Positions 3,064 to 37,293 of a stretch of 64,000 nt of DNA are shown piece by piece. Made by a program: the position numbers and the translations under genes. Numbering within the stretch: the first letter of the stretch is position 1; every line of letters starts with the position of its first letter. Below the pieces are notes generated by a model. It had not been told where the DNA came from and did no database searches. It worked only from the letters and a program-made list of their open reading frames with translations. The DNA comes from an uncultured delta proteobacterium (lineage in GTDB: Bacteria > Desulfobacterota > SM23-61), in contig CAVXFA010000054.1 of the NCBI GenBank assembly GCA_963760605.1, positions 23,380-87,379 on the forward strand, read 5' to 3'.

Positions 3064-3915
3064 ATGAGAACCTCTAAAAGAGAAAGACCCACCAAAAACC
3101 CTGATCTTTCAGGGGTCGAGACTTCCCAGGAAGAGATGGCCCCCTTCGGATATCGCCGGATCCCGGCCCGAGAAAAGCGCCAATGGGTTCTGCGGCACTT
3201 CAATTCCATCGCCCGGCAATATGATTCGATGAACACCATCCTCAGCTTTGGCCTTCAGCATCTATGGAAGAGGGCGGCAGTGGAAGCCATCGGCCTGAAG
3301 CGGGGTGATCGAGTCATTGATGTCTGTGGGGGAACAGCTGACCTTTCCATTTTGTCTGCCACAAATGTCGGTCCCGATGGCCGGGTAATTTTGTATGACA
3401 TTAATCGAGAGATGATGGAAGGTGGAAGGACCAAGGTAGCCCGGAATTCTATGGCGGAAATGATTTGGTTCGTCCAGGGTGATGCGGAGCAGATCGCTTT
3501 TCGAGATGAGCAGTTTGAAGCAGCCATCGTGGGCTTTGGAATACGGAATCTGACAAGGATGGAGAGAGGCCTGGAAGAGATGTACCGGGTCTTGAAACCC
3601 GGAGGAAAGCTGGTGTGTCTGGAATTTTCCATGCCTACTTCAGGGTGGTTCAGGTGGCTTTATAATTTTTATTCCTTTCACATCATGCCCCTTGCGGGTC
3701 AGGTCCTTGCCGGCTCCCGGGAGGCCTACACGTATCTTCCGGAATCAATCCGAAGATTCCCTCTGCCGGAGGAATTGACGGCCATCCTTAAAGGGATCGG
3801 TTTTGCAAACGTAACCTATCAAAACCTTACAAACGGCATCGCCGTGATTCATCTCGGATTAAAGCCAAAAAATATTTTGCCACAGAGAACACCGAGAATA
3901 CTGAGAGGAAATTGA
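3064..3915 (+). CDS. ubiE: UbiE/MenG quinone C-methyltransferase
   Basis: FNSIARQYDSMNTILSFG, DVCGGTADL, GFGIRN, EAYTYLPESIRRFP. Confidence 0.9.
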   Translation: MRTSKRERPTKNPDLSGVETSQEEMAPFGYRRIPAREKRQWVLRHFNSIARQYDSMNTILSFGLQHLWKRAAVEAIGLKRGDRVIDVCGGTADLSILSATNVGPDGRVILYDINREMMEGGRTKVARNSMAEMIWFVQGDAEQIAFRDEQFEAAIVGFGIRNLTRMERGLEEMYRVLKPGGKLVCLEFSMPTSGWFRWLYNFYSFHIMPLAGQVLAGSREAYTYLPESIRRFPLPEELTAILKGIGFANVTYQNLTNGIAVIHLGLKPKNILPQRTPRILRGN

Positions 3916-3978
3916 AATTTTAAAAGAATCAGCATTTATGATTCAGATTATCTCTGTGTTCTCTGTGCCCTCTGTGGC
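3878..3978. repeat. Intergenic inverted short-unit repeat (GCCACAGAGAACAC... / ...CTCTGTGTTCTCTGTGCCCTCTGTGGC)
   Basis: Two arms of imperfect ~9-nt units in inverted orientation span the ubiE stop. Confidence 0.6.
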
Positions 3979-6788: not shown

Positions 6789-6817
6789 CTCTACATTGCT
6801 AACCTGAGGAACGGGTG

Positions 6818-9790
6818 ATGTCAGATTTTTCGCGTCGGGACTTCTTAAAAGCTGTTTCTCTGACAGGAACCGCCGCAGTCATTGGTTGTTCCTCAGAACC
6901 CGCCAGAAAGCTAATCCCCTACATCTTCCCTCCCCAAGACATCATCCCCGGTGAGGCCACCTGGTATGCGACCACCTGCCGGGAATGCCCGGCCGGGTGC
7001 GGCCTGCTGGCCAAAAACAGGGACGGCCACGTCATAAAAGTAGAGGGAAATCCCCTCCACCCGGTGAATCAGGGGAAACTTTGTGCCCGAGGCCAGGCTG
7101 CGGTACAGGGTCTTTATAATCCGGACCGCTACCGCGGTCCTTTGCAGAAGAAGTCGGACGGGAGCTTCGAACCCATTTCCTGGGAAGCAGCGGAGGATCG
7201 CCTCGTTGAAAAGCTCGTGGAGTTAAAAAAGAAAGGAGGAAGAGACCGCGCCGTCTTCCTGACCGAACTCGTCACGGGCACGCCAAAGAACTTGATCACG
7301 CGCTGGCTCGAAGAACTGGGCACAGGGGGACCTGTTCTCTACGAGCCCTTTGCCTACGAACCCCTGCGGAAGGCCAATGAGGTGGTTTACCGTCTGGGTC
7401 GGATTCCGACCTATTATATCGACCAGGCCGATTTTCTCCTTTCCTTCAGCGCCAATTTCCTGGAGACCTGGCTTTCCAATGTCCAGTATGCCCGCCAGTT
7501 CGCTTCTTTCCATGCGCCAGCGGAAGGGGGCAAGAACCTTTTCATCTATGTGGGGCCCCGGCTCTCTTTGACAGCCGCAAACGCGGACCACTGGATCGCT
7601 GTCTCTCCCGAGAACCAGGCGCTGGTGGCCCTGGGGATCATCCATCTCCTCCTTGAAAAGGGCATTCCTCTGGCCATCAAGGGGGAGCAGAGAGCCGCCC
7701 TGGAGGAGCAGGCCAGAAACCTCTCCCCCGAGACGGTGGAAGGCAGGACGGGGGTGAAAGTCCAGACCCTCCGGATGGTAGCCGAAAATTTCTCTAAGGC
7801 AAAGAGGCCTTTAGCCCTCGCAGAGGGGCTGTTCTGTGCAGATACCCGGGCAACTGAAACGGCTATTGCGGCCAATCTCCTTTGTGCCCTCTCTCCCGAC
7901 GCCAGACAAACCATAGATTTTGACGATCCTTCTTCCCTGGGAGAAGTCGTTCCGGCGGAGACGATGAACGAATTGACGAAGAAAATGTTAAAAGCAGAGA
8001 TTGAATTGCTCCTGATCGATCGGGCCAATCCCCTCTTTCATCTCCCCCCGGCGTGGGAATTCCTCAAAGCCCTCAAAAATGTTCCGATGGTGGTGAGCTT
8101 TTCCAGCTTCCCGGATGAGACGAGCGATCACGCCCACCTGATCTTGCCCACTCACACCTTCCTGGAATCCTGGGGAGATTACAGCCCGAGGAAAAATGTA
8201 GAGGGGCTGCTGCAACCGGTCATGGGGCCGATGTTCAATACGCGGCAGCTGGCTGAGATCCTTCTTTCTACGGGGAAAAAATTGGCCGGGGAGAAAAAGT
8301 TCCCCTGGAAAAATTTCTATGAAATGCTCCGGGCCGAGTGGGCGCAGAAAGGAAAAAGCAAGGGATCATCTGAGACCTTCTGGCAGGAAAGCCTGCAAAG
8401 AGGAGGGACCTGGAGCGCGCGGGGTAAAGAGTTTTTTAGGCCATTATCCGGTTCGTTTAATTTTACCTTCACTCAGCCTCTCTCGTCCCTTCCCGGAAAG
8501 GCAGAGAAGCGTTTCCATTTTGTCAGCTACCCTACTGTTCAGTTCTTTGACGGCCGCAGTGCTAACCGGCCTTTCCTGCAAGAGCTGCCCGACCCCATGA
8601 CCAACATCACCTGGGGAGGATGGGTAGAGATTAACATGGAAACGGCCAAAAAACTGGGGATCTCGCAGGGGGATGTTCTGACCTTGCGGTCGTCGCACGG
8701 ATCCTTGCAGGCTCCGGCTTATCCCTATCCGGGGATTCCCGAGGGAACACTGGCTATGCCTATCGGGCAGGGACATGCGGCCTTTGGCCGCTTCAGTCAA
8801 AGCCGGTCGGGCAACCCTGGGCAGTTGATTTCTCCGAACACCGATCCTAGCTCGGGGGGAATCATCCGGTCGGTCGCGGAAGTGACCGTAGAAAAACTCG
8901 GTCGATCCATTCCTCTGGCCAACACAGATGGCAGCCTTTCCGAGCACGGGCGAAATCTGGTTCAGGCGGTCTCCTGGGAGGAATATCGGGAATGGAAATC
9001 AAAAGGCCCGAAGCCCCCCATTGCGCCGCCTCTTCCCAAAGGATTTTCGCAAAGAGATGATTTCTACAAGCCCCACGTGCATGTGGACTACCGCTGGGCG
9101 ATGGTCGTGGATCTGGATCGCTGCATCGGCTGCGGGGCATGTGTGGTGGCCTGCTATGCGGAAAACAACGTGGCCGTCGTGGGAAAGGAGCAGGTTCTCA
9201 GGGGCCGGGAAATGTCCTGGCTGCATATCGAGCGATACCTCGAGCCGGAGAAATTGGAAGCAAATCAAGAACCCAAGATTCGCTTCCTCCCCATGCTATG
9301 CCAGCATTGTGATGAGGCTCCCTGCGAATCGGTCTGCCCCGTATTCGCCCCCCATCACAGCCGGGAAGGGATTAATAATCAGGTTTACAACCGCTGTATC
9401 GGAACTCGTTTCTGTTCCCAGAACTGTCCCTACAAGGTTCGACGGTTCAACTGGTTCACCTGGACCCGTCCCGAACCGCTTACCTGGCAGCTCAACCCCG
9501 ATGTGACGGTGCGGGAGAAAGGGGTGATGGAGAAATGCTCATTCTGTATCCAGCGGATCGTGGAGACGAAGATCAAAGCCAAAAGCGAGGGCCGAAAGGT
9601 CCGAGATGGAGAGTTTACCACTGCCTGCGCCCAGACCTGTCCGGCTGACGTCTTGATCTTTGGCAACCTCCTGGATCCCGACAGCCAGGTATCCAAACTG
9701 ATTCAGGACCCCCGGGCGTACCAGGTACTGGGTCATCTGAATACGAAGCCGGCAGTTATTTATCTGCAGAAGATAATTCGTAAGTTGTGA
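6818..9790 (+). CDS. actB: Alternative complex III subunit B (Tat-exported molybdopterin-oxidoreductase-like domain plus Fe-S domain)
   Basis: Tat SRRDFLK; CRECPAGC..KLC; C-terminal CIGCGACVVAC, CQHC..PCESVCP, CIGTRFCSQNCP, CSFC..CAQTCP. Confidence 0.9.
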   Translation: MSDFSRRDFLKAVSLTGTAAVIGCSSEPARKLIPYIFPPQDIIPGEATWYATTCRECPAGCGLLAKNRDGHVIKVEGNPLHPVNQGKLCARGQAAVQGLYNPDRYRGPLQKKSDGSFEPISWEAAEDRLVEKLVELKKKGGRDRAVFLTELVTGTPKNLITRWLEELGTGGPVLYEPFAYEPLRKANEVVYRLGRIPTYYIDQADFLLSFSANFLETWLSNVQYARQFASFHAPAEGGKNLFIYVGPRLSLTAANADHWIAVSPENQALVALGIIHLLLEKGIPLAIKGEQRAALEEQARNLSPETVEGRTGVKVQTLRMVAENFSKAKRPLALAEGLFCADTRATETAIAANLLCALSPDARQTIDFDDPSSLGEVVPAETMNELTKKMLKAEIELLLIDRANPLFHLPPAWEFLKALKNVPMVVSFSSFPDETSDHAHLILPTHTFLESWGDYSPRKNVEGLLQPVMGPMFNTRQLAEILLSTGKKLAGEKKFPWKNFYEMLRAEWAQKGKSKGSSETFWQESLQRGGTWSARGKEFFRPLSGSFNFTFTQPLSSLPGKAEKRFHFVSYPTVQFFDGRSANRPFLQELPDPMTNITWGGWVEINMETAKKLGISQGDVLTLRSSHGSLQAPAYPYPGIPEGTLAMPIGQGHAAFGRFSQSRSGNPGQLISPNTDPSSGGIIRSVAEVTVEKLGRSIPLANTDGSLSEHGRNLVQAVSWEEYREWKSKGPKPPIAPPLPKGFSQRDDFYKPHVHVDYRWAMVVDLDRCIGCGACVVACYAENNVAVVGKEQVLRGREMSWLHIERYLEPEKLEANQEPKIRFLPMLCQHCDEAPCESVCPVFAPHHSREGINNQVYNRCIGTRFCSQNCPYKVRRFNWFTWTRPEPLTWQLNPDVTVREKGVMEKCSFCIQRIVETKIKAKSEGRKVRDGEFTTACAQTCPADVLIFGNLLDPDSQVSKLIQDPRAYQVLGHLNTKPAVIYLQKIIRKL

Positions 9791-9812: not shown

Positions 9813-9830
9813 AAACGGGGCGTCCTTAAT

Positions 9831-9881
9831 CTTAGGCATTTAAGGCATTTTAGCGCATTTAAGGCATTGGATCTTAGGCAC
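9831..9881. repeat. 9-10-nt-unit array (TTAGGCAT), array A1
   Basis: cttaggcat ttaaggcat tttagcgcat ttaaggcat ... cttaggcac directly before actC. Confidence 0.75.
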
Positions 9882-9886
9882 CTGCC

Positions 9887-11224
9887 ATGGAACATCTCAG
9901 TTACAAAGATGTGAATCGGGAAATACTGCGGACGCTATCTGCAGCTCCTCGGTATTATTATCTCATCGTGGCGCTTTTATTTCTCGGGATTCTTTGGGCG
10001 GCTATCTGCTGGGGCTACCAGATCCTTACAGGTTTGGGTGTTACAGGGCTCTTGCACCCAACGATGTGGATTCTCTACCTGGTCAACTTCGTCTTCTGGA
10101 TAGGGATCGCCCATTCGGGCACTCTGATTTCCGCCATCCTTTATCTCTTCCGGGCCAGATGGCGCACGGCCATTGCCCGCAGCTCCGAGGCCATGACCGT
10201 TTTTGCTGTGATGATTGCGGGCCTGTTCGTTTTCATCCACCTGGGGCGACCCTGGATCTTCTACTGGATTATCCCCTATCCTAACGAACGAACCTTGTGG
10301 CCAGATTTTCAATCCCCCCTGATCTTTGATTTTCTGGCTGTTTCCACTTATCTTACGGTAAGCGTCCTTTTCTGGTTTACCGGGCTTGTCCCAGACCTGG
10401 CCGCAGTACGGGACCGGGCTCGGGGAATCCGGCAGAAGATTTACGGTTTCTTTTCCCTGGGCTGGACAGGGACAGACCGTCAATGGCACCATTACGGCGC
10501 CGCTTACCTTCTGCTGGCGGGCCTGGCCACTCCCCTGGTCGTCTCGGTGCACAGCGTGGTTTCCTGGGACTTCGCGCTGGCCATCATTCCTGGATACCAC
10601 AGCACGATCTTCGCCCCTTACTTCGTAGCCGGTGCGATTCATTCTGGCCTGGCCATGGTTCTCACCCTATTGATCCCCCTGCGGCGTATTTTTCGCTTCG
10701 AAAAGATCATCACCCTCAAAGACCTTGAGTCCATCGCTAAAACTACCATCCTTACCGGGCTCATCATCGGCTATTCCTACATCATCGAATATTTCATGGC
10801 CTGGTACAGCGGGAATATCTTTGAAAGACAGACTTTCATCTTCCGGGCCATCGGCCATTATTCGTTCATGTTTTGGCTCATGGTGGTCTGCAACGCGGTG
10901 GCCCCGCTCTTCTTCTTCTTCAAGAAAATTCGAACCCACCCTGGGTTCCTCTTCACCATCGCGGTTCTCATTAATATCGGCATGTGGACCGAACGTTTTG
11001 TGATCATCATCGGGTCCATGGCCCAGGACTTCATCCCTTACCAGTGGGGTTTTTACTCCCCCCGCTGGGTGGAACTTAGCATTACCGTGGGATCTTTCTG
11101 CCTGTTCCTGTTCCTTTTTCTCCTCTTTGCAAAATTCCTCCCTTCGGTCTCCATCGCCGAGGTCAAGGAGGATCTTACCCCTTCCCATAGGGGAAAAGGA
11201 AAGCGAGACCACCATGGCGCATGA
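9887..11224 (+). CDS. actC: Alternative complex III subunit C (NrfD/PsrC family)
   Basis: NFVFWIGIAHSGTLISAIL, HLGRPW, VHSVVSWDFA, GMWTERF. Confidence 0.92.
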   Translation: MEHLSYKDVNREILRTLSAAPRYYYLIVALLFLGILWAAICWGYQILTGLGVTGLLHPTMWILYLVNFVFWIGIAHSGTLISAILYLFRARWRTAIARSSEAMTVFAVMIAGLFVFIHLGRPWIFYWIIPYPNERTLWPDFQSPLIFDFLAVSTYLTVSVLFWFTGLVPDLAAVRDRARGIRQKIYGFFSLGWTGTDRQWHHYGAAYLLLAGLATPLVVSVHSVVSWDFALAIIPGYHSTIFAPYFVAGAIHSGLAMVLTLLIPLRRIFRFEKIITLKDLESIAKTTILTGLIIGYSYIIEYFMAWYSGNIFERQTFIFRAIGHYSFMFWLMVVCNAVAPLFFFFKKIRTHPGFLFTIAVLINIGMWTERFVIIIGSMAQDFIPYQWGFYSPRWVELSITVGSFCLFLFLFLLFAKFLPSVSIAEVKEDLTPSHRGKGKRDHHGA

Positions 11225-11726
11225 TCCCGCACTGCTGGGCATTTTCCCCTATCTGGATGAACTACTGGATGCTCTGAGGAAGCTGAAAAAGGCAGAATGT
11301 AAGGTTCTTACGGTATTCTCCCCCATTCATTTTTCTGAGATCCAGGAAGTCATGGGGTATAAACCAAGCCCCGTCAGATATTTCATCCTTGCCGGCGGAA
11401 TTCTGGGAGGCGCCAGCCTGGTGAGCCTGGCCGCTTACGCCCATCTAAGTTTTAAATTAATCACCAGCGGTAAACCCGTGTTGCCCCCCATCCCTTTTAT
11501 CGTGCCCTTATTCGAGGGCACTGTCCTCCTGGCGGTTATCTTTGGCGTGGTCGCCTGGGTGCTTAAGGGCCGACTGCCGCGGGTCCACCTACCCAGCGCC
11601 TATGATCCCCGTTTTTCCGAGGACCGTTTCGGAATCGTGGCCGCTTACAAAGATGGGGAACGCGATATAATTTTAAAACTCCTGCAGGATGCAGGAGCTG
11701 AAGAGGTCCGGGATGTCAACGGGTGA
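11214..11726 (+). CDS. actD: Alternative complex III subunit D (DUF3341)
   Basis: VFSPIH, SGKP, FEGTVL, YDPRFSEDRFGI; start overlaps the actC stop. Confidence 0.85.
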   Translation: MAHDPALLGIFPYLDELLDALRKLKKAECKVLTVFSPIHFSEIQEVMGYKPSPVRYFILAGGILGGASLVSLAAYAHLSFKLITSGKPVLPPIPFIVPLFEGTVLLAVIFGVVAWVLKGRLPRVHLPSAYDPRFSEDRFGIVAAYKDGERDIILKLLQDAGAEEVRDVNG

Positions 11727-12957
11727 AAACCTCCATCATCAGCCAGCCCCCCGAATTTCACCCGTTTGGACGGCACTCTTCGCCCTCCTCGCCCTCATCG
11801 GGTTGATTGCTTTTCTTCTGGGGATTTATGGGCCTCATTCTCAAAGAGCCTGGCAGGCCTATTTGATCAATTATGTTTTTTGGACTGGACTCTCCTTCGG
11901 GGCGGTGTTGTTCGTGGCCGTCTTGAACATGGCCGACGCCATGTGGGGGCGTCCCTTAAAGCGACTGGCCGAGGCCCTTGGAGCTTTCCTGCCCGCCTCT
12001 TTCCTTCTCTTCTGGGTTCTGTACTTGGGTCGGCAAGAGATCTTTCCCTGGGTGCGGCAGCCGAACCCAGAGAAGCAGATCTGGCTGAATGCCGGGTTTA
12101 TGTTTGCCCGGAATGGAGTGGGTCTCTTTCTGCTCACCGCCCTTTCTTTGGCTCTGATTTATTATTCCGTAAGAGGAGACAAAGAAATGGCCCGCCGCCT
12201 GAACGGGATCGTTCCGGTTAACCACGTTGTCGATGCAAATGAAGAGACCTGCTGGCGGGCTCAGCGGGTGCTCTCTCCGATCATAGGAATTGTTTACGCC
12301 TTTGTCTTAAGCTTCCTGGCCTTTGATCTGATCATGTCTCTTGATCCCCACTGGTACAGCACCCTCTTTGGGGCCTATTATTTCATGTCCAGCTTTTACA
12401 CTGCGTTGGCCGCTTTGTATCTTCTTTCCCCAATATCCCTGAAGGCCCGTGGCCTGAGCGAAACCATTCACGCCCATCACCTCCATGACCTGGGAAAGCT
12501 TGTTTTCGCCTTTTGCCTGTTCACCGGCTATCTCTTCTATACCCAGTTCCTGGTGATCTGGTATGGCAACCTTCCGGAAGAAACCCGTTATATCATCTTA
12601 CGACTCCGTTTCACGCCGTGGGAACCCATAGCCTGGATTATTCTGGCGACGATTTTCGTCATTCCCTTTATCGTGCTTCTGAGTCGAAAGATCAAAATGA
12701 AACCGGTGGCGATGATGATCATCAGCGGAATGATCCTCGTGGGAATGTGGTTGGAACGATTCATCCTGGTGGCCCCTTCGATTTGGAAGGGGGAAGGGCT
12801 CCCGATCGGGCCGATGGAAGTCTTGATTACTGCGGGATTTTTCGGGATTCTGGCCCTGAGTTTGGTTATCTTTCTCAGGAGGGTTCCCCTGCTACCGATC
12901 TCCGATCCGCTTTTCCGAAAGTCCATCGAACCACACGAAGAAAAGGAGAAACCCTGA
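11713..12957 (+). CDS. actF: Alternative complex III subunit F (second NrfD-like membrane subunit)
   Basis: RAWQAYLIN, WGRPLKRLAE, MSLDPHWYSTLFG, QFLVIWYGNLPEE. Confidence 0.85.
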   Translation: MSTGENLHHQPAPRISPVWTALFALLALIGLIAFLLGIYGPHSQRAWQAYLINYVFWTGLSFGAVLFVAVLNMADAMWGRPLKRLAEALGAFLPASFLLFWVLYLGRQEIFPWVRQPNPEKQIWLNAGFMFARNGVGLFLLTALSLALIYYSVRGDKEMARRLNGIVPVNHVVDANEETCWRAQRVLSPIIGIVYAFVLSFLAFDLIMSLDPHWYSTLFGAYYFMSSFYTALAALYLLSPISLKARGLSETIHAHHLHDLGKLVFAFCLFTGYLFYTQFLVIWYGNLPEETRYIILRLRFTPWEPIAWIILATIFVIPFIVLLSRKIKMKPVAMMIISGMILVGMWLERFILVAPSIWKGEGLPIGPMEVLITAGFFGILALSLVIFLRRVPLLPISDPLFRKSIEPHEEKEKP

Positions 12958-12967
12958 GAAGGGATGA

Positions 12968-13036
12968 AAGTACCTAACGTGCGCTAAAATGCCTGACATG
13001 CGCTAAAGTGTTCTTAATTAGAAATGCCTAAAGTTG
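12968..13036. repeat. 9-10-nt-unit array (ATGCCTAAA), array A2; its last unit contains the actA ATG
   Basis: TGCGCTAAAATGCCT (12980-12994) is the exact reverse complement of 9843-9857. Confidence 0.75.
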
Positions 13037-13566
13037 ACTCAGAAAACACAGCAATAAAACCTGGACGGGGATTTATCTGGCTGGGGATTGTGGCAATTTT
13101 TTTTGCCGTCATGTTATATTTTATATACTTCTATCCCCAGCGAGATATTGGCCCGCAGCAGCCAATTTATTTCAGTCACCGGGTCCATGCAGGGGAGAAA
13201 GAGATCCACTGTCGCTTCTGTCATCCCTTCGTGGAACGGTCCCCGAATGCCGGCATTCCGCCCATGGAAAAATGTTTCTTTTGTCATGACTATATTATTC
13301 CCATGCACCCGCAGATCCTCAAAGAAAAGGAGCACTACGAAGCGAAAAAACCCGTTCCCTGGGTGCGTATTTACTGGGTCCCCGACTTCGTTTTTTTCAA
13401 CCACATCCCCCATATCAAATGGGCGAAGCTCGATTGTACCGAATGCCATGGGGATGTGAAAAGGATGGACCGGCTGCGCCCGGTGAAATTCCAGATGGGG
13501 TTTTGCATTGGCTGTCATCGAAAAAGAGGAGCGCAGGTAGATTGCTGGCTGGCGTGTCACCGTTAG
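13024..13566 (+). CDS. actA: Membrane-anchored pentahaem cytochrome c, ACIII subunit A / QrcA-like
   Basis: N-terminal TM, PQQPIYFSHRVHAG, four CxxCH plus a terminal CWLACH. Confidence 0.88.
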   Translation: MPKVDSENTAIKPGRGFIWLGIVAIFFAVMLYFIYFYPQRDIGPQQPIYFSHRVHAGEKEIHCRFCHPFVERSPNAGIPPMEKCFFCHDYIIPMHPQILKEKEHYEAKKPVPWVRIYWVPDFVFFNHIPHIKWAKLDCTECHGDVKRMDRLRPVKFQMGFCIGCHRKRGAQVDCWLACHR

Positions 13567-13567
13567 A

Positions 13568-13616
13568 AGTGCCTAAAGTGAGCTAAAATGCCTGAAGTGC
13601 CTAAAGTGCACTAAAG
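13568..13616. repeat. 9-10-nt-unit array (GTGCCTAAA), array A3
   Basis: 13568-13607 is the reverse complement of 14160-14199 at 36/40 positions. Confidence 0.8.
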
Positions 13617-13764
13617 TACTAAGGAGTCTATAATTGACCAGACATATTCTTCCAAAATCTCCCCTGACCCCTCTTTTCCAAAGAGGGGAAATTCCTCCCT
13701 TTTGTAAAGGGAGGGAAGGAGGGATTTGGTCTTCGGTGTCTATATAATTATGGACTGACTAATA
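13617..13764. mobile_element. 148-bp MITE, TA-bounded, copy 1
   Basis: Near-identical inverted copy at 37146-37293; imperfect TIRs TACTAAGGAGTCTATAATT / AATTATGGACTGACTAATA; internal CCCCTCTTT..AAAGAGGGG palindromes. Confidence 0.8.
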
Positions 13765-13766
13765 AA

Positions 13767-14123
13767 ATGAATAATAGACAATTTGCTCAAAAGCTAGAAA
13801 AACGAACACGCGATTTTGCGGTGAGGATGATTCGGTTGGCTGCAACTCTACCGAACACGCCAGAGGGCAAATTAATAAGGGAGCAAAAAACCAAGTCAGC
13901 AACCTCGATAGGTGCCAATTACCACGAAGCCAATCGGTCAAGGAGTAAGGCCGATTTCAGAAATAAGATCGATATTTGTGAAAGTGAGGCGAGCGAAACC
14001 AAACATTGGATAGAGATTATTTCAGATTTGCAGTGGCTGCCAAAGGAACAACTGAAACCAGAACATGAGGAAGGTAGCGAACTACTGGCTATCTTTACTT
14101 CCATTAGCAAAAAGTGTAAGTAA
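13767..14123 (+). CDS. Four helix bundle protein (23S rRNA intervening-sequence protein / Avd-like family)
   Basis: LEKRTRDFAVRMI..SATSIGANYHEA..SKADFRNKIDICESEASET..W. Confidence 0.85.
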   Translation: MNNRQFAQKLEKRTRDFAVRMIRLAATLPNTPEGKLIREQKTKSATSIGANYHEANRSRSKADFRNKIDICESEASETKHWIEIISDLQWLPKEQLKPEHEEGSELLAIFTSISKKCK

Positions 14124-14130
14124 TGTGTTA

Positions 14131-14200
14131 CTCAACTTTAGGCACTCTGGGCACTTTGAACTTTAGGCACTTTAGGCACTCTAGCGCACTTTAGGCACTC
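14131..14200. repeat. 9-10-nt-unit array (TTTAGGCAC), array A4
   Basis: About seven units immediately before the ccoN ATG; inverted relative to A2 and A3. Confidence 0.8.
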
Positions 14201-14205
14201 TCATC

Positions 14206-15600
14206 ATGGAGCAACAGGGGAGAACGATATTGCCGCCACTTCACGAAGGGACTTATGCAACGGTGAGAGGGTTTTTTGTCACTTCAGCCTCCTGGTTTGT
14301 GGGCGCGACTGTGGCCGGGATCATCATGGCGATCGCTCTGGTGGCGCCGGATTTCATAAGAAATATCCCCTGGCTTGTTTTTGGAAGAATTCGCCCCATC
14401 CACACCAACGTGATGATCTTTGGCTTCGTCGGCTCAGCTCTGCTGGGTGCGACCCACTTCCTAGTCCCCACTCTGGTCCGTGCCCCTCTTTATAGCGAAA
14501 AGATCGGCCGGATCACATTATGGATATGGAATCTGGCCCTGGCCGCCGGTACCGTTACCCTCGCCTTGGGCTACACTCAGAGCCGGGAGTATGCCGAATG
14601 GATCTGGCCGGTAGACCTCATGGTTCTCCTCTCCTTTTCCCTGATGTTTTACAACCTGCTAAGGACCGTCATCCTGCGCCAGGAAAAACTTCTCTACGTC
14701 TCCGTCTGGTATGCTTTCGCGGCCCTGATCTTCACCTTCTTTATTTACTTTTTCGGAAACGCCGTCTGGAATCCGGCCACCGGCGCCATCACCGGCATGC
14801 CGGATGCGATCCTGGCTTGGTTTTACGGCCACGGGATCGTTGGCCTGTTCCTCACCCCCCTGGCCGTGGGCGTGGCGTACTATGTCATCCCCATCGTCAG
14901 CCGCGCCCCACTCTTCAGCCATGCCCTGTCGCTTCTCGGTTTCTGGTCAATCCTCATGTTCTATCCTCATATCGGCACCCATCACCTTCTGCAGACCCCG
15001 GCCCCGACCTGGTTGAAGGTAGTGGCGATTACCGGAAGTATCGGCATGCTCATCCCCGTCCAGACCGTCCTGTTGAATCTCTGGTTGACTCTACGGGGCC
15101 GGCTGGGAAATATTCATGCGGACATTGGCGGAAAATTCGTCTTTGCCGGGCTGGTCTGGTACATGCTGGTCTGCCTCCAGGGCCCCCTACAATCCCTGCC
15201 CTATGTCCAGCGATTGACCCATCTGACTAACTGGGTGGTTGCCCATGCCCACATTGCGGTTTTGGGATTTTCCGGATTCATTGGACTGGGCGGGGTCTAT
15301 TTCATCATCCCCAGAATTACGGGGCGCCCCCTCTACAGCAACAAGCTGGCGGACATTCAGTACTGGTTGATCCTCATCGGGCTCACTGGATTTTTTCTCG
15401 TCCTGACGACTGCTGGCCTCATTCAGGGGAACGGGTGGTTGAATGGAGAAGTGGTTTACAGAATCTTGCCCCAAATATATGTCTATTTCTTTTTGCGGGC
15501 TTCTTTGGGAATTCTCATCGTCGGCGGAGCCGTCATCGGCCTCTACAATATTTTAAGAAGCCTGTATGGGTCCCATCCGAGTGAGGATCGTTCCCTATGA
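14206..15600 (+). CDS. ccoN: cbb3-type (family C) haem-copper oxidase subunit I
   Basis: GRIRPIHTN, SREYAE, WFYGHG, FYPHIGTHHLL, WVVAHAH: all six His ligands and the helix VII Tyr are present. Confidence 0.92.
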   Translation: MEQQGRTILPPLHEGTYATVRGFFVTSASWFVGATVAGIIMAIALVAPDFIRNIPWLVFGRIRPIHTNVMIFGFVGSALLGATHFLVPTLVRAPLYSEKIGRITLWIWNLALAAGTVTLALGYTQSREYAEWIWPVDLMVLLSFSLMFYNLLRTVILRQEKLLYVSVWYAFAALIFTFFIYFFGNAVWNPATGAITGMPDAILAWFYGHGIVGLFLTPLAVGVAYYVIPIVSRAPLFSHALSLLGFWSILMFYPHIGTHHLLQTPAPTWLKVVAITGSIGMLIPVQTVLLNLWLTLRGRLGNIHADIGGKFVFAGLVWYMLVCLQGPLQSLPYVQRLTHLTNWVVAHAHIAVLGFSGFIGLGGVYFIIPRITGRPLYSNKLADIQYWLILIGLTGFFLVLTTAGLIQGNGWLNGEVVYRILPQIYVYFFLRASLGILIVGGAVIGLYNILRSLYGSHPSEDRSL

Positions 15601-16547
15601 AAATGACTCTGAACCTGCTCGTCTATGGAAGTCTGATGATCTTTGCTTCGATCCTGGCGGTTGCCGTAATCCTCCCCTGGGCCACGATGAGCGATAAACC
15701 ATCGGAGATTTTCCGCGAAAGGACGGCACTGGAGGAGGAGGGGCGGAAGATCTACATTGCCAATGGCTGCACCTATTGCCATACCCAGTTCATCCGCTAT
15801 CTGGACTGGGATTTGGGAGCGGAGAGAATCGCCCGGGCGGGAGACTATATCCGGGAACAGCCTCACCTTCTGGGCTCGGAGCGCACCGGCCCGGACCTTT
15901 CTCAGGAAGGGGGAGAGCATCCGGATGATTGGCATATGGCCCATTACACCAACCCGCGTTTTACCCGGCCCGAATCCCTGATGCCGTCCTTTGAATTTTT
16001 GGGGAAAGAGAAGATTAAGGCCCTCATCGCCTACAAGCAAAGTTTGGGATTCAAGGATGCGGACCTCCGGGTCGAGCGGCAGCGCTTCTGGAAGCAAAAG
16101 GCCATCGAAGCTTACCAGGCTGGCCCGGACAAAAATATCGAATGGCTGCATTCTAAGGTTCCCGAACCCTGGAGAAAATTGCCCAACCCTTTCCCCACCT
16201 CCGAAGCCGGTCTGAAACGGGGCCACCGTATATACCAGAGCTTTTGTATCGGATGCCATGGGCCGATCGGTGACGGCATGGGATCGGCCGAGCCTTACCT
16301 GTACCCCCCCCCGCTGAATTTCACGCTGCTAGCAGGGAGGGGAATTTCCGGGGGGATTCTCTATTATCAGATTATGAACGGGATCACCGGCACGGCCATG
16401 CCCTATTTCAAAAGGGAGCTGGAGTCGGAGAAGATTTGGGATGTAGGCAATTACGTGGCCGTGAATTTCATCGGCGAATCCGATGCCGGAGCGGAACCCA
16501 GGGGCATTGCCGCCGCCTTTCAACCCCCGGTGAAAGGTGAAAAGTAA
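15597..16547 (+). CDS. ccoO: cbb3 oxidase subunit II fused to a second cytochrome c domain (di-haem)
   Basis: GCTYCHTQFIR, GSERTGPDL, SLMP; second domain CIGCHG..GTAMP. Confidence 0.88.
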   Translation: MKMTLNLLVYGSLMIFASILAVAVILPWATMSDKPSEIFRERTALEEEGRKIYIANGCTYCHTQFIRYLDWDLGAERIARAGDYIREQPHLLGSERTGPDLSQEGGEHPDDWHMAHYTNPRFTRPESLMPSFEFLGKEKIKALIAYKQSLGFKDADLRVERQRFWKQKAIEAYQAGPDKNIEWLHSKVPEPWRKLPNPFPTSEAGLKRGHRIYQSFCIGCHGPIGDGMGSAEPYLYPPPLNFTLLAGRGISGGILYYQIMNGITGTAMPYFKRELESEKIWDVGNYVAVNFIGESDAGAEPRGIAAAFQPPVKGEK

Positions 16548-17099: not shown

Positions 17100-17170
17100 A
17101 TACAGGGATGAGTGAAGTGTGATGAACGATGAGTAACGAATGACAAATGAAAAATAAGGATGATTAACGA

Positions 17171-17197
17171 CTTGCGACTCACGACTCAGGACTTACG
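17171..17197. repeat. 7-nt-unit array (ACGACTC), complementary to 9786-9812
   Basis: cttgcgactc acgactc aggactt acg. Confidence 0.6.
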
Positions 17198-17226
17198 AAA
17201 AATCCCCTCTGCGAATAGAGTGACGA

Positions 17227-17523
17227 GTGATGAGGGATGAGTTAAAACAAGGCATGGAGTCCAGAAGCCAGGGAAACAAAACAGACTTGCGCAGCTGGAT
17301 GATCATTCTAGCGATCGCCATTCTATTCTTCTGCTATGGTCTTTTCATGTTTCTGGCGGTTGGAGATAAAGGCCCACCCGGCTGGGATTTCGGTGTCGTG
17401 GAGGATGTTCCTGGAGAATCCGCTTATTCCACGCATCCCCCGGGGGCTCCGGAGCCAGAGCCGCAACACGTCTCCCAGAAGCCGCCGCAAGCTGAGATTA
17501 ACGTGAGTAAGGAAAACCCATGA
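17227..17523 (+). CDS. Small single-TM membrane protein of the cco cluster (start may be 17254)
   Basis: TM helix followed by VGDKGPPGWDFGVVEDVPGESAYS; stop overlaps the next start. Confidence 0.65.
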   Translation: MMRDELKQGMESRSQGNKTDLRSWMIILAIAILFFCYGLFMFLAVGDKGPPGWDFGVVEDVPGESAYSTHPPGAPEPEPQHVSQKPPQAEINVSKENP

Positions 17524-37145: not shown

Positions 37146-37293
37146 TATTAGTCAGTCCCTAATTATATAGACACCGAAGACCAAATCCCTCCTTCCCTCC
37201 CTTTACAAAAGGGAGGAATTTCCCCTCTTTGGAAAAGAGGGGTCAGGGGAGATTTTGGAAGAATATGTCTGGTCAATTATGGACTCCTTAGTA
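37146..37293. mobile_element. 148-bp MITE, TA-bounded, copy 2 (inverted relative to 13617-13764)
   Basis: Near-identical reverse complement of copy 1. Confidence 0.8.

Follow-up and report, generated by a model that had tools for sequence, protein, structure and literature searches.

Why should a small gene of the four-helix-bundle (4HB) type stand between two respiratory genes, enclosed by two mirrored arrays of short tandem repeats? The question is raised by a 64,000-nt stretch of DNA from an uncultured delta proteobacterium (assembly GCA_963760605.1, contig CAVXFA010000054.1), hereafter called the window, in which the 4HB gene lies between a multihaem cytochrome c gene and ccoN, the gene for subunit I of a cbb3-type oxidase. 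The locus belongs to the class of array-armed 4HB cassettes, a widespread type that occurs here with a 9/10-nt unit. Our reading, held with moderate confidence, is that it is an old copy of such a cassette, and the protein-operon counterpart of those intervening sequences (IVSs) of 23S rRNA that bear an open reading frame (ORF). The preliminary description of this DNA had proposed an IVS-like cassette, and the proposal stands: an ORF of family PF05635 lies in the loop of a long predicted stem of short tandem repeats, and arms and gene are present together at six readable junctions and absent together from three.

The cassette and its arms

The components of the locus, with their positions in the window, are the following:

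13024-13566, + strand: multihaem cytochrome c gene (ActA/QrcA-like), 180 aa, the upstream host gene and the last of the actB-C-D-F-cytochrome cluster
13567-13616, + strand: left arm, a tandem array of the AAGTGCCTA type in units of 9/10/9/9/10 nt (Tandem Repeats Finder, TRF: period 9, 5.4 copies)
13617-13762: repeat of 146 nt resembling a miniature inverted-repeat transposable element (MITE), a secondary insertion that separates the left arm from the 4HB start codon (blastn)
13767-14123, + strand: 4HB gene, 118 aa, with matches to PF05635, TIGR02436 and 2RLD
14135-14201, + strand: right arm, a tandem array of the ACTTTAGGC type and the mirror of the left arm (TRF and inverted-repeat search)
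14206-15600, + strand: ccoN, cbb3-type oxidase subunit I, the downstream host gene (COX1, E=2e-75)

Regarding the arms, the inverted segments 13568-13610 and 14157-14199 are 43 nt long, 88% complementary and 546 nt apart. The left array runs from 13567 as AAGTGCCTA, AAGTGAGCTA, AAATGCCTG, AAGTGCCTA and AAGTGCACTA, that is 9/10/9/9/10, and the right one, read inwards from 14196, has units of 9/10/9/9/7/9/9; thus the 9/10/9/9 register is mirrored, with the 10-nt unit at the mirrored position, and the common register described earlier for inverted arrays around a 4HB gene between an actA-like cytochrome gene and ccoN can be read directly. Such cassettes usually have a 7-nt unit, versus 9/10 nt here. 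The left arm begins 1 nt past the cytochrome stop codon, and on the other side the ccoN ATG follows 4 nt after the end of the right arm. An 18-mer of two units, with up to 3 mismatches, had 6 matches in the window against 0.02 expected, and none of 100 shuffles reached 6. As for folding, a 691-nt transcript of positions 13540-14230 had a predicted minimum free energy (MFE) of -220.7 kcal/mol, where 20 shuffles gave -175.9 ± 6.9 (z = -6.5), and the MFE fold and the centroid fold both contain the long-range stem; the duplex of left and right arm had a ΔG of -74.4 kcal/mol compared with -26.3 ± 4.3 in shuffles. The right arm is also a copy of a module dispersed in this lineage, AGGCAYTNTAGCGCAYTTNAGGCA (C54:37553-37576, which corresponds to window 14174-14197).

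The start of ccoN beside the right arm is ambiguous: the ATG at 14206 sits 4 nt past the arm and has no Shine-Dalgarno sequence, an in-frame TTG at 14230 comes after GGGGAG, and the matches of relatives to ccoN start at query residues 6-17; this TTG may be the true start.

The MITE-like repeat has 52 blastn matches in the window's own genome (designated G000), 50 of which reach 100 nt or more; ten of the best 12 are 99.3% identical, so the element was active recently. It has G-rich/C-rich hairpins, and a further copy lies at window 37148-37293 (C54:60527-60672). One metagenome contig joins 13616 to 13763, a weak joint whose shorter side is only 23 nt. Without the MITE, the cassette is about 490 nt long.

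The 4HB ORF matched PF05635 with 64.7 bits (E=1e-17; cut-off 33.8) and TIGR02436, 'four helix bundle protein', with 82.2 bits (E=2.8e-23; cut-off 24); the nearest solved relative by sequence match is 2RLD (E=3.4e-17), whose entry has 5 chains. The protein is basic, with an isoelectric point (pI) of 9.4 and 22 Lys plus Arg versus 17 Asp plus Glu. It had no match at E≤0.01 to the profile of Avd, NF033474; the second 4HB paralogue of the genome matched it weakly, with 19.9 bits against a cut-off of 80. The GC content at third codon positions (GC3) of the gene is 0.43, compared with 0.56-0.69 in its neighbours; the second 4HB gene has the same GC3 of 0.43, and the neighbours of the two range over 0.56-0.72. 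The composition of the 4HB gene is therefore foreign, although the cassette at this site predates the split of four genera.

The junction in relatives and the cassette class

The comparison covered 41 genomes, namely G000 and 40 relatives sampled within the phylum. In 12 of them ccoN is present (E≤1e-50), and the junction of the cytochrome gene and ccoN can be read in nine, G000 included. The six that carry both arms and 4HB gene are G000, G013, G011, G007, G008 and G003, with the cassette of G011 split over two contig ends. The preliminary description had called for empty sites among relatives, and these exist: in G004, G005 and G040 the junction consists of a plain stop codon, Shine-Dalgarno sequence and ccoN start. 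No site with arms only occurs among the nine readable junctions. The empty site of G005, TGAAGCGCATAGAGAGG, contains AGCGCA, which was considered as a deletion scar and is too short to count.

The occupied sites form a series of states. In G007 the 4HB ORF is intact and its product is 65% identical to the window protein; in G008 it is cut 9 codons before its end by another, different MITE; in G013 (1 TGA, 1 TAA) and in G003 (3 TGA) it is a pseudogene with stops and frameshifts. The arms outlast the 4HB ORF. Their duplex has a ΔG of -58 to -74.4 kcal/mol in all 5 orthologous loci in which both arms can be read, while the shuffle means are -16.4 to -26.3 and none of the shuffles (100 for each) fell below -37.6. 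The arm unit is AAGTGCC/GGCACTT in G000, G013 and G007, and AAATGCC/GGCATTT in G008 and G003; it thus changes on both arms at once, which indicates that the arms evolve in concert, a statement based on units read by eye, since the alignment of whole cassettes does not align the arms unit for unit.

As for the age of the cassette, the 4HB protein and its G007 counterpart (65% identity) are about as diverged as the neighbouring cytochrome (64%) and ccoN (73%) products, so the cassette is old; it is common to at least four genera, and the ORF has decayed in 2 or 3 of them. A maximum-likelihood tree from 1051 alignment columns of ActC, ActF and the cytochrome places G040, G008, G007, G004 and G005 in one group with a support of 100 and, within it, G008, G007, G004 and G005 with a support of 82. 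Occupied and empty genomes cannot be separated by a single split, and hence the tree requires two or more gains or losses. The earlier suggestion of a mobile or excisable cassette is upheld in that arms and ORF were inserted as one unit at a stop/start junction; recent mobility is not, given the age of the cassette across these genera.

Beyond this site, G000 has one other PF05635 gene (C3:20462-20767), located between genes for a membrane-fusion protein (mfp) and an ABC ATPase (abc). This gene, too, has arrays on both sides, here of 7-mers and with a perfect inverted repeat of 17 bp within them; the arm units of the two cassettes are unrelated to each other. When the 3517 genes of G000 were ranked by inverted flanks, the C3 gene came 14th, and the window gene came 352nd with flanks of 120 nt because the MITE pushes its left arm beyond that range. 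Inverted flanks scoring at least 15 were found for 19 of these 3517 crudely called genes and for none of 1500 random pairings; apart from 4HB genes, those concerned were mostly transposase genes of the RAYT (REP-associated tyrosine transposase) or insertion-sequence type with unique inverted repeats, as judged by eye from the N-termini.

Three more of them are successive genes of an acetyl-CoA synthase/corrinoid operon at C21:675-4831 (AcsC-like, methyltransferase and CooC-like, named by eye from their N-termini), each enclosed by heptamer arrays in inverted orientation, of the GCTGATC or the CGCTATG type; 4HB genes are thus not the only ones that arrays bracket. At C106:4224-5068 and C83:30141-30957 the sequence is an almost perfect palindrome of about 800 nt, its two strands carrying mirrored ORFs; both are most likely assembly artefacts of the inverted-duplication kind and not biological brackets.

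PF05635 was found in 32 of the 41 genomes, with 1-14 matches each, and the flanks of one 4HB locus per genome were compared (29 of 30 usable) by an ungapped score for inverted matches, with cross-locus pairings as nulls. RNA duplex folding on 170-nt windows was abandoned since it gave over-long duplexes and poor contrast, and pairing of arrays detected by TRF overlooked the C3 cassette, whose arrays are too short for it. The score reached at least 12 in 27 of the 29 loci (null 2.2%) and at least 15 in 21 (null 0.4%). To look further afield, one near-consensus relative was used as a query against a collection of species-representative genomes, which returned 420 confirmed loci; the best 80, of which 76 were usable, are relatives of the query protein and not of the window protein's subfamily, and come from Planctomycetota, Acidobacteriota, Chloroflexota, Armatimonadota, Gemmatimonadota and others. 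Here the inverted score was at least 12 in 67 of 76 loci and at least 15 in 57, and the score in direct orientation was at least 12 in only 12; the cross-locus null of 12% is inflated, as many loci share related heptamers. Paralogues of the 4HB gene therefore do have inverted flanks, in G000 (the C3 gene), in its relatives and in other phyla, and on this point the preliminary description had made its case depend. Members of the window protein's own subfamily elsewhere are flanked by units of 7-8 nt (for example AATGCGG, ATTGACG, AATTCGA and AATGCAAA), so that the unit length is not fixed by subfamily. Several subfamily relatives occupy the same pair of host genes in different genera.

Dispersed modules and the role of the arms

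The 24-nt module AGGCAYTNTAGCGCAYTTNAGGCA, searched with at most 1 mismatch, has 10 matches in G000 and occurs in 12 of the 41 genomes, all of them in the family of the window (f1); a control with the reversed pattern gave 0 matches in all genomes. It is found in all six cassette-bearing genomes and has 0 copies in all three empty-site genomes. The window protein has orthologues (at least 50% identity) only at the junction of the cytochrome gene and ccoN; G001, G002, G009, G012, G014 and G015 have 1-15 modules each and no orthologue, and G013 has 34 modules and only the 4HB pseudogene. In G013 the module (loci L213, L218, L222-L224 and others) stands within a composite repeat of a shared leader, the array and a hairpin element that begins TGGTTGCGGC; this composite may explain the 34 copies.

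Solo modules sit in the orientation of the right arm. Downstream of 35 of 49 solo copies, a sense ORF starts within 150 nt (at least 70 codons, or at least 40 at the end of a locus), many of these ORFs reading through the adjoining repeat; by eye, about 14 of the 49 end 2-31 nt before a convincing start, among them those of gltX, ddl, dnaE, ispF and others, and most of these lack a Shine-Dalgarno sequence of their own. One module match (C54:33222-33245) falls in an orphan array of the window, in the spacer of actB and actC, that ends just before the actC start codon. The gene order of the window around it is a cluster of the alternative complex III (ACIII)/Qrc type followed by genes of the cbb3 oxidase:

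6815-9790: actB-like gene
9820-9885, + strand: orphan array of the TTAGGCATTT type in right-arm orientation, in the actB-actC spacer and of the same nonamer family as the arms
9887-11224: actC-like gene
11127-11726: actD-like gene
11689-12957: actF-like gene
15597-16547: ccoO/P fusion gene

The cytochrome that follows actF has 4 CxxCH motifs and 1 CxxxCH motif and is thus pentahaem; its Pfam matches are Cytochrome_C7/CIII, and its best NCBIfam match is QrcA with 78.8 bits, under the cut-off of 180, which makes 'actA' a fair label, though not a proven one. The ccoN product matched TIGR00780 (1.5e-81), also under the cut-off. The spacer between actB and actC has 97 nt in G000. G013, G008 and G003 likewise have a long spacer, and that of G004, G005 and G040 measures only 24-36 nt. 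With the left arm, 3.7 kb further on, the orphan array could form a duplex with a ΔG of -55.4 against -30.4 for a control in the same orientation.

Arrays of this general kind are abundant: G000 has about 281 arrays with a period of 6-11 in its intergenic DNA, 141 of them with period 7 and 64 with period 9, which belong to dozens of unit families, and only two 4HB genes. At the mfp-abc junction, where G000 has its second cassette, none of 11 relatives has a 4HB gene; eight have arrays, mostly inverted hairpins of at least four unit families, one has another inverted repeat and two have nothing. In G008 the left and right arrays of this junction belong to different families.

Further arrays were seen in the window. 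One inverted pair of 9-mer arrays, 3881-3906 and 3951-3976 (CACCGAGAA and TCTCTGTGC), encloses a loop of 45 nt and is one of at least 10 hairpins of the CACAGAGAA type in G000; the same family occupies the mfp-abc junction in G016, G014, G012, G008 and G003. Two adjoining 7-mer arrays detected by TRF, 17167-17198 (ACGACTC, 4.6 copies) and 17218-17242 (GAGTGAT, 3.6 copies), have units that look roughly complementary and are sited just 5' of an ORF that starts at 17227.

The distribution of the arrays contradicts the proposal that the 4HB protein is the trans factor for the bracketing arrays: among the 12 genomes with the module, six have no orthologue and two have only a pseudogene, and about 281 arrays of G000 face two 4HB genes. 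Whatever maintains the repeats, it is probably not this protein. In that proposal, the protein would bind its cognate repeat as RNA or DNA and control the cassette that encodes it as well as, in trans, the solo arrays before actC, gltX, ddl and others; the counts just given, and those of G013 with its 34 copies and a pseudogene, speak against it, and we consider it very unlikely. It would fit with the basic pI of the protein, which, to judge from the solved relative, is probably a ring, and with the situation in G000, which has 10 module matches and 9 clusters of the unit and where only the window 4HB gene is flanked by that unit; unit families also look similar among close protein relatives, a resemblance confounded with taxonomy.

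A different order of events is doubtful, if far from negligible: the host arrays came first, the TTAGGCAYTT arrays being intercistronic modules of the lineage, and the 4HB gene is a passenger inserted or captured between them. The modules might then act as translation-initiation or processing elements, and the arms would work for ccoN regardless of the protein. The restriction of the module to family f1 with no control match, the solo copies ahead of gene starts, the right arm that ends just before the ccoN ATG, the ORF-less and mostly inverted arrays at the mfp-abc junction in eight of 11 relatives and the persistence of arms around dead ORFs all agree with this. Against it, the three empty sites lack arms as well as gene, their genomes have no module, and an arms-only site is missing; moreover, the company of arrays and gene in 67 of 76 loci of other phyla is far too regular for random landing, unless hairpin arrays are a specific target. 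Under the reading as an inserted cassette, too, the arms outlive the ORF and their unit is endemic to family f1, where it stands elsewhere directly before start codons, and therefore the arms, or at least the right arm, probably now serve the host gene and do not depend on the 4HB protein.

Under the cassette reading, a unit of about 490 nt, made of left array, 4HB ORF and inverted right array, would have been inserted exactly between the cytochrome stop codon and the ccoN start region, and the MITE would have landed in it later. The cassette would be transcribed as part of the act-cco message, and its arms would fold into a stem of about 45-55 bp with the ORF in the loop; RNase III might then cut this stem as it does in rRNA IVSs, freeing the 4HB RNA and separating the act and cco messages, and such a cut would make the insertion tolerable. 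The gene for RNase III is present in G000, and cutting of the arm stem is plausible by analogy, though put forward tentatively. Regarding transcription, 55 of 56 classifiable upstream genes and 53 of 58 classifiable downstream genes share the strand of the 4HB gene, together 108 of 114 (from the 80 and 30 loci described above), and no promoter-like site was found on the sense strand in 13400-14300, all 3 such sites being on the minus strand; for these reasons, the cassette is most likely transcribed with the act-cco operon.

Several observations weigh against this explanation. The arms remain where the ORF is dead (G013, G003) or cut by a MITE (G008), and the arm unit is a dispersed module that occurs without the protein; the arms may thus be host elements with the 4HB gene merely between them. 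The tree calls for two or more events that may be gains or losses, and no target-site duplication was noticed on reading the junction sequences, in a search that was not systematic. The best arm alignments of 99 of 105 loci contain 573 mismatches in 3499 positions; on the sense strand, 137 of them are of the G·U type and 139 of the A·C type (p = 0.95), and in view of this lack of a G·U excess there is no signature of pairing selected specifically in the sense RNA. A role at the DNA level, or binding of a protein to the units, fits this result equally well, and our analysis does not reconcile it with the near-universal co-orientation. Finally, 20 of 24 sequencing runs contain part of the stretch, with a best word share of 0.46 and shares of 0.09 and 0.04 for two RNA runs; the contigs of four runs cover only arrays and MITE, with a depth of 0 over 13833-14119, so that the organism itself is not in those four runs.

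The missing wobble signature agrees with an element mobile at the DNA level: the inverted arrays would be hairpin or cruciform ends for a recombinase supplied in trans or for a replication-linked mechanism, the 4HB protein would be accessory or cargo, and RNA folding would be incidental. We judge this decidedly unlikely. It agrees with the turnover of unit families among relatives at the mfp-abc junction, with the repeated gain or loss at the junction of the cytochrome gene and ccoN, and with metagenome contigs that join left-type to right-type arrays over loops of 7-28 nt, although the short sides of these joints are 20-31 nt and they probably come from other loci. On the other hand, the two cassettes of one genome differ in their arms, unlike ends read by one transposase; no target-site duplication was noticed on reading the junctions; the 95% co-orientation with host genes would not be expected from DNA transposition alone; and the cassette occupies one site across four genera. 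Joints in contigs that skip 538-574 nt were considered as products of cassette excision and rejected, having short sides of 20-31 nt and other letters between; they are attributed to other loci or organisms in which the arm unit forms short-loop hairpins.

What the cassette reading adds can be stated in a few points. To our knowledge, PF05635/TIGR02436 is a very large protein family with no known function, and we know of no explanation for short tandem intergenic repeats since they were first described. The orthologous series across genera, from intact through MITE-cut and pseudogene to empty site, shows arms outlasting the gene; the dispersed module, which is family-wide and exists in the absence of the protein as well, argues against the idea that each protein reads its own repeat; and the 95% co-orientation with host genes and the absence of an RNA-wobble signature in the arms are two class-wide constraints on any mechanism. 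If the RNase III step is true, bacteria carry intron-like, RNA-excised insertions inside protein operons. More speculatively, and unlikely as a whole, short-tandem-repeat arrays and 4HB cassettes could be one system: an IVS-type element that colonises the stop/start junctions of operons and the helices of rRNA, is tolerated there since its stem is taken out of the RNA or neutralised in it, and decays into ORF-less hairpin and solo arrays that the host adopts as modules near start codons. Were this so, the short tandemly repeated repetitive (STRR) and heptamer repeats of many phyla would gain an origin and a function.

Comparison with known systems

Avd, the accessory protein of diversity-generating retroelements, is a relative described as associated with nucleic acids, and it shares the four-helix-bundle superfamily with the window protein. 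Unlike Avd, the latter is encoded among act and cco genes, and neither a reverse transcriptase nor a pair of template and variable repeats was seen among its neighbours. As for repeats, REP (repetitive extragenic palindrome)/RAYT elements and MITEs resemble the window arrays in being dispersed, palindromic and intergenic; their inverted repeats are unique sequences common to all copies, whereas the arms of the cassettes are tandem arrays with a unit that differs from copy to copy.

The STRR sequences of cyanobacteria are intergenic short tandem repeats of a similar kind. The solo module copies, with about 14 of 49 placed before start codons, look like repeats of the STRR or TAACTGA type, but with a unit of 9/10 nt and not 7.

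In the parts of the source that were accessible, the TAACTGA heptamers of Beggiatoaceae are almost only direct, single-sided intergenic arrays (PMC4679880). Like the solo nonamer modules, they are short, tandem, intergenic and forward, and often end a few bases before a start codon; the window arrays differ from them in being an inverted pair around a gene and in their 9/10-nt unit (PMC4679880). The terms 'S23', 'intervening sequence' and 'four helix' are all absent from the searchable text of that article (PMC4679880). A full-text literature search, whose returns were mostly listings and abstracts without supplements, gave no published description of such cassettes outside 23S rRNA.

The closest parallel is the 23S rRNA IVS. 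According to the accessible part of the source, the IVS of Coxiella burnetii has a 28-bp stem of terminal inverted repeats and is excised by RNase III; two to four tandem heptamers adjoin the start codon of its S23p gene, the RNase III cut lies where the first repeat starts, and the ORF is decaying under reductive evolution (PMC4990558). An ORF-bearing IVS of Leptospira is credited there to Ralph and McClelland 1993 (cited in PMC4990558). As far as these descriptions go, in both elements a long stem of terminal inverted repeats encloses a PF05635 (S23p) ORF in its loop, the arm beside the start codon contains short tandem repeats, and the ORF tends to decay while the stem is kept; they are also of similar size, 428-444 nt for the rRNA IVS and about 490 nt for the window cassette without its MITE. 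They differ in location, which is helix 25 or 45 of 23S rRNA for the IVS and a protein-coding respiratory operon, between a cytochrome c gene and ccoN, for the window cassette; in unit length, 7 nt in the IVS and 9/10 nt here; and in excision by RNase III, which is known for the IVS and putative for the cassette.

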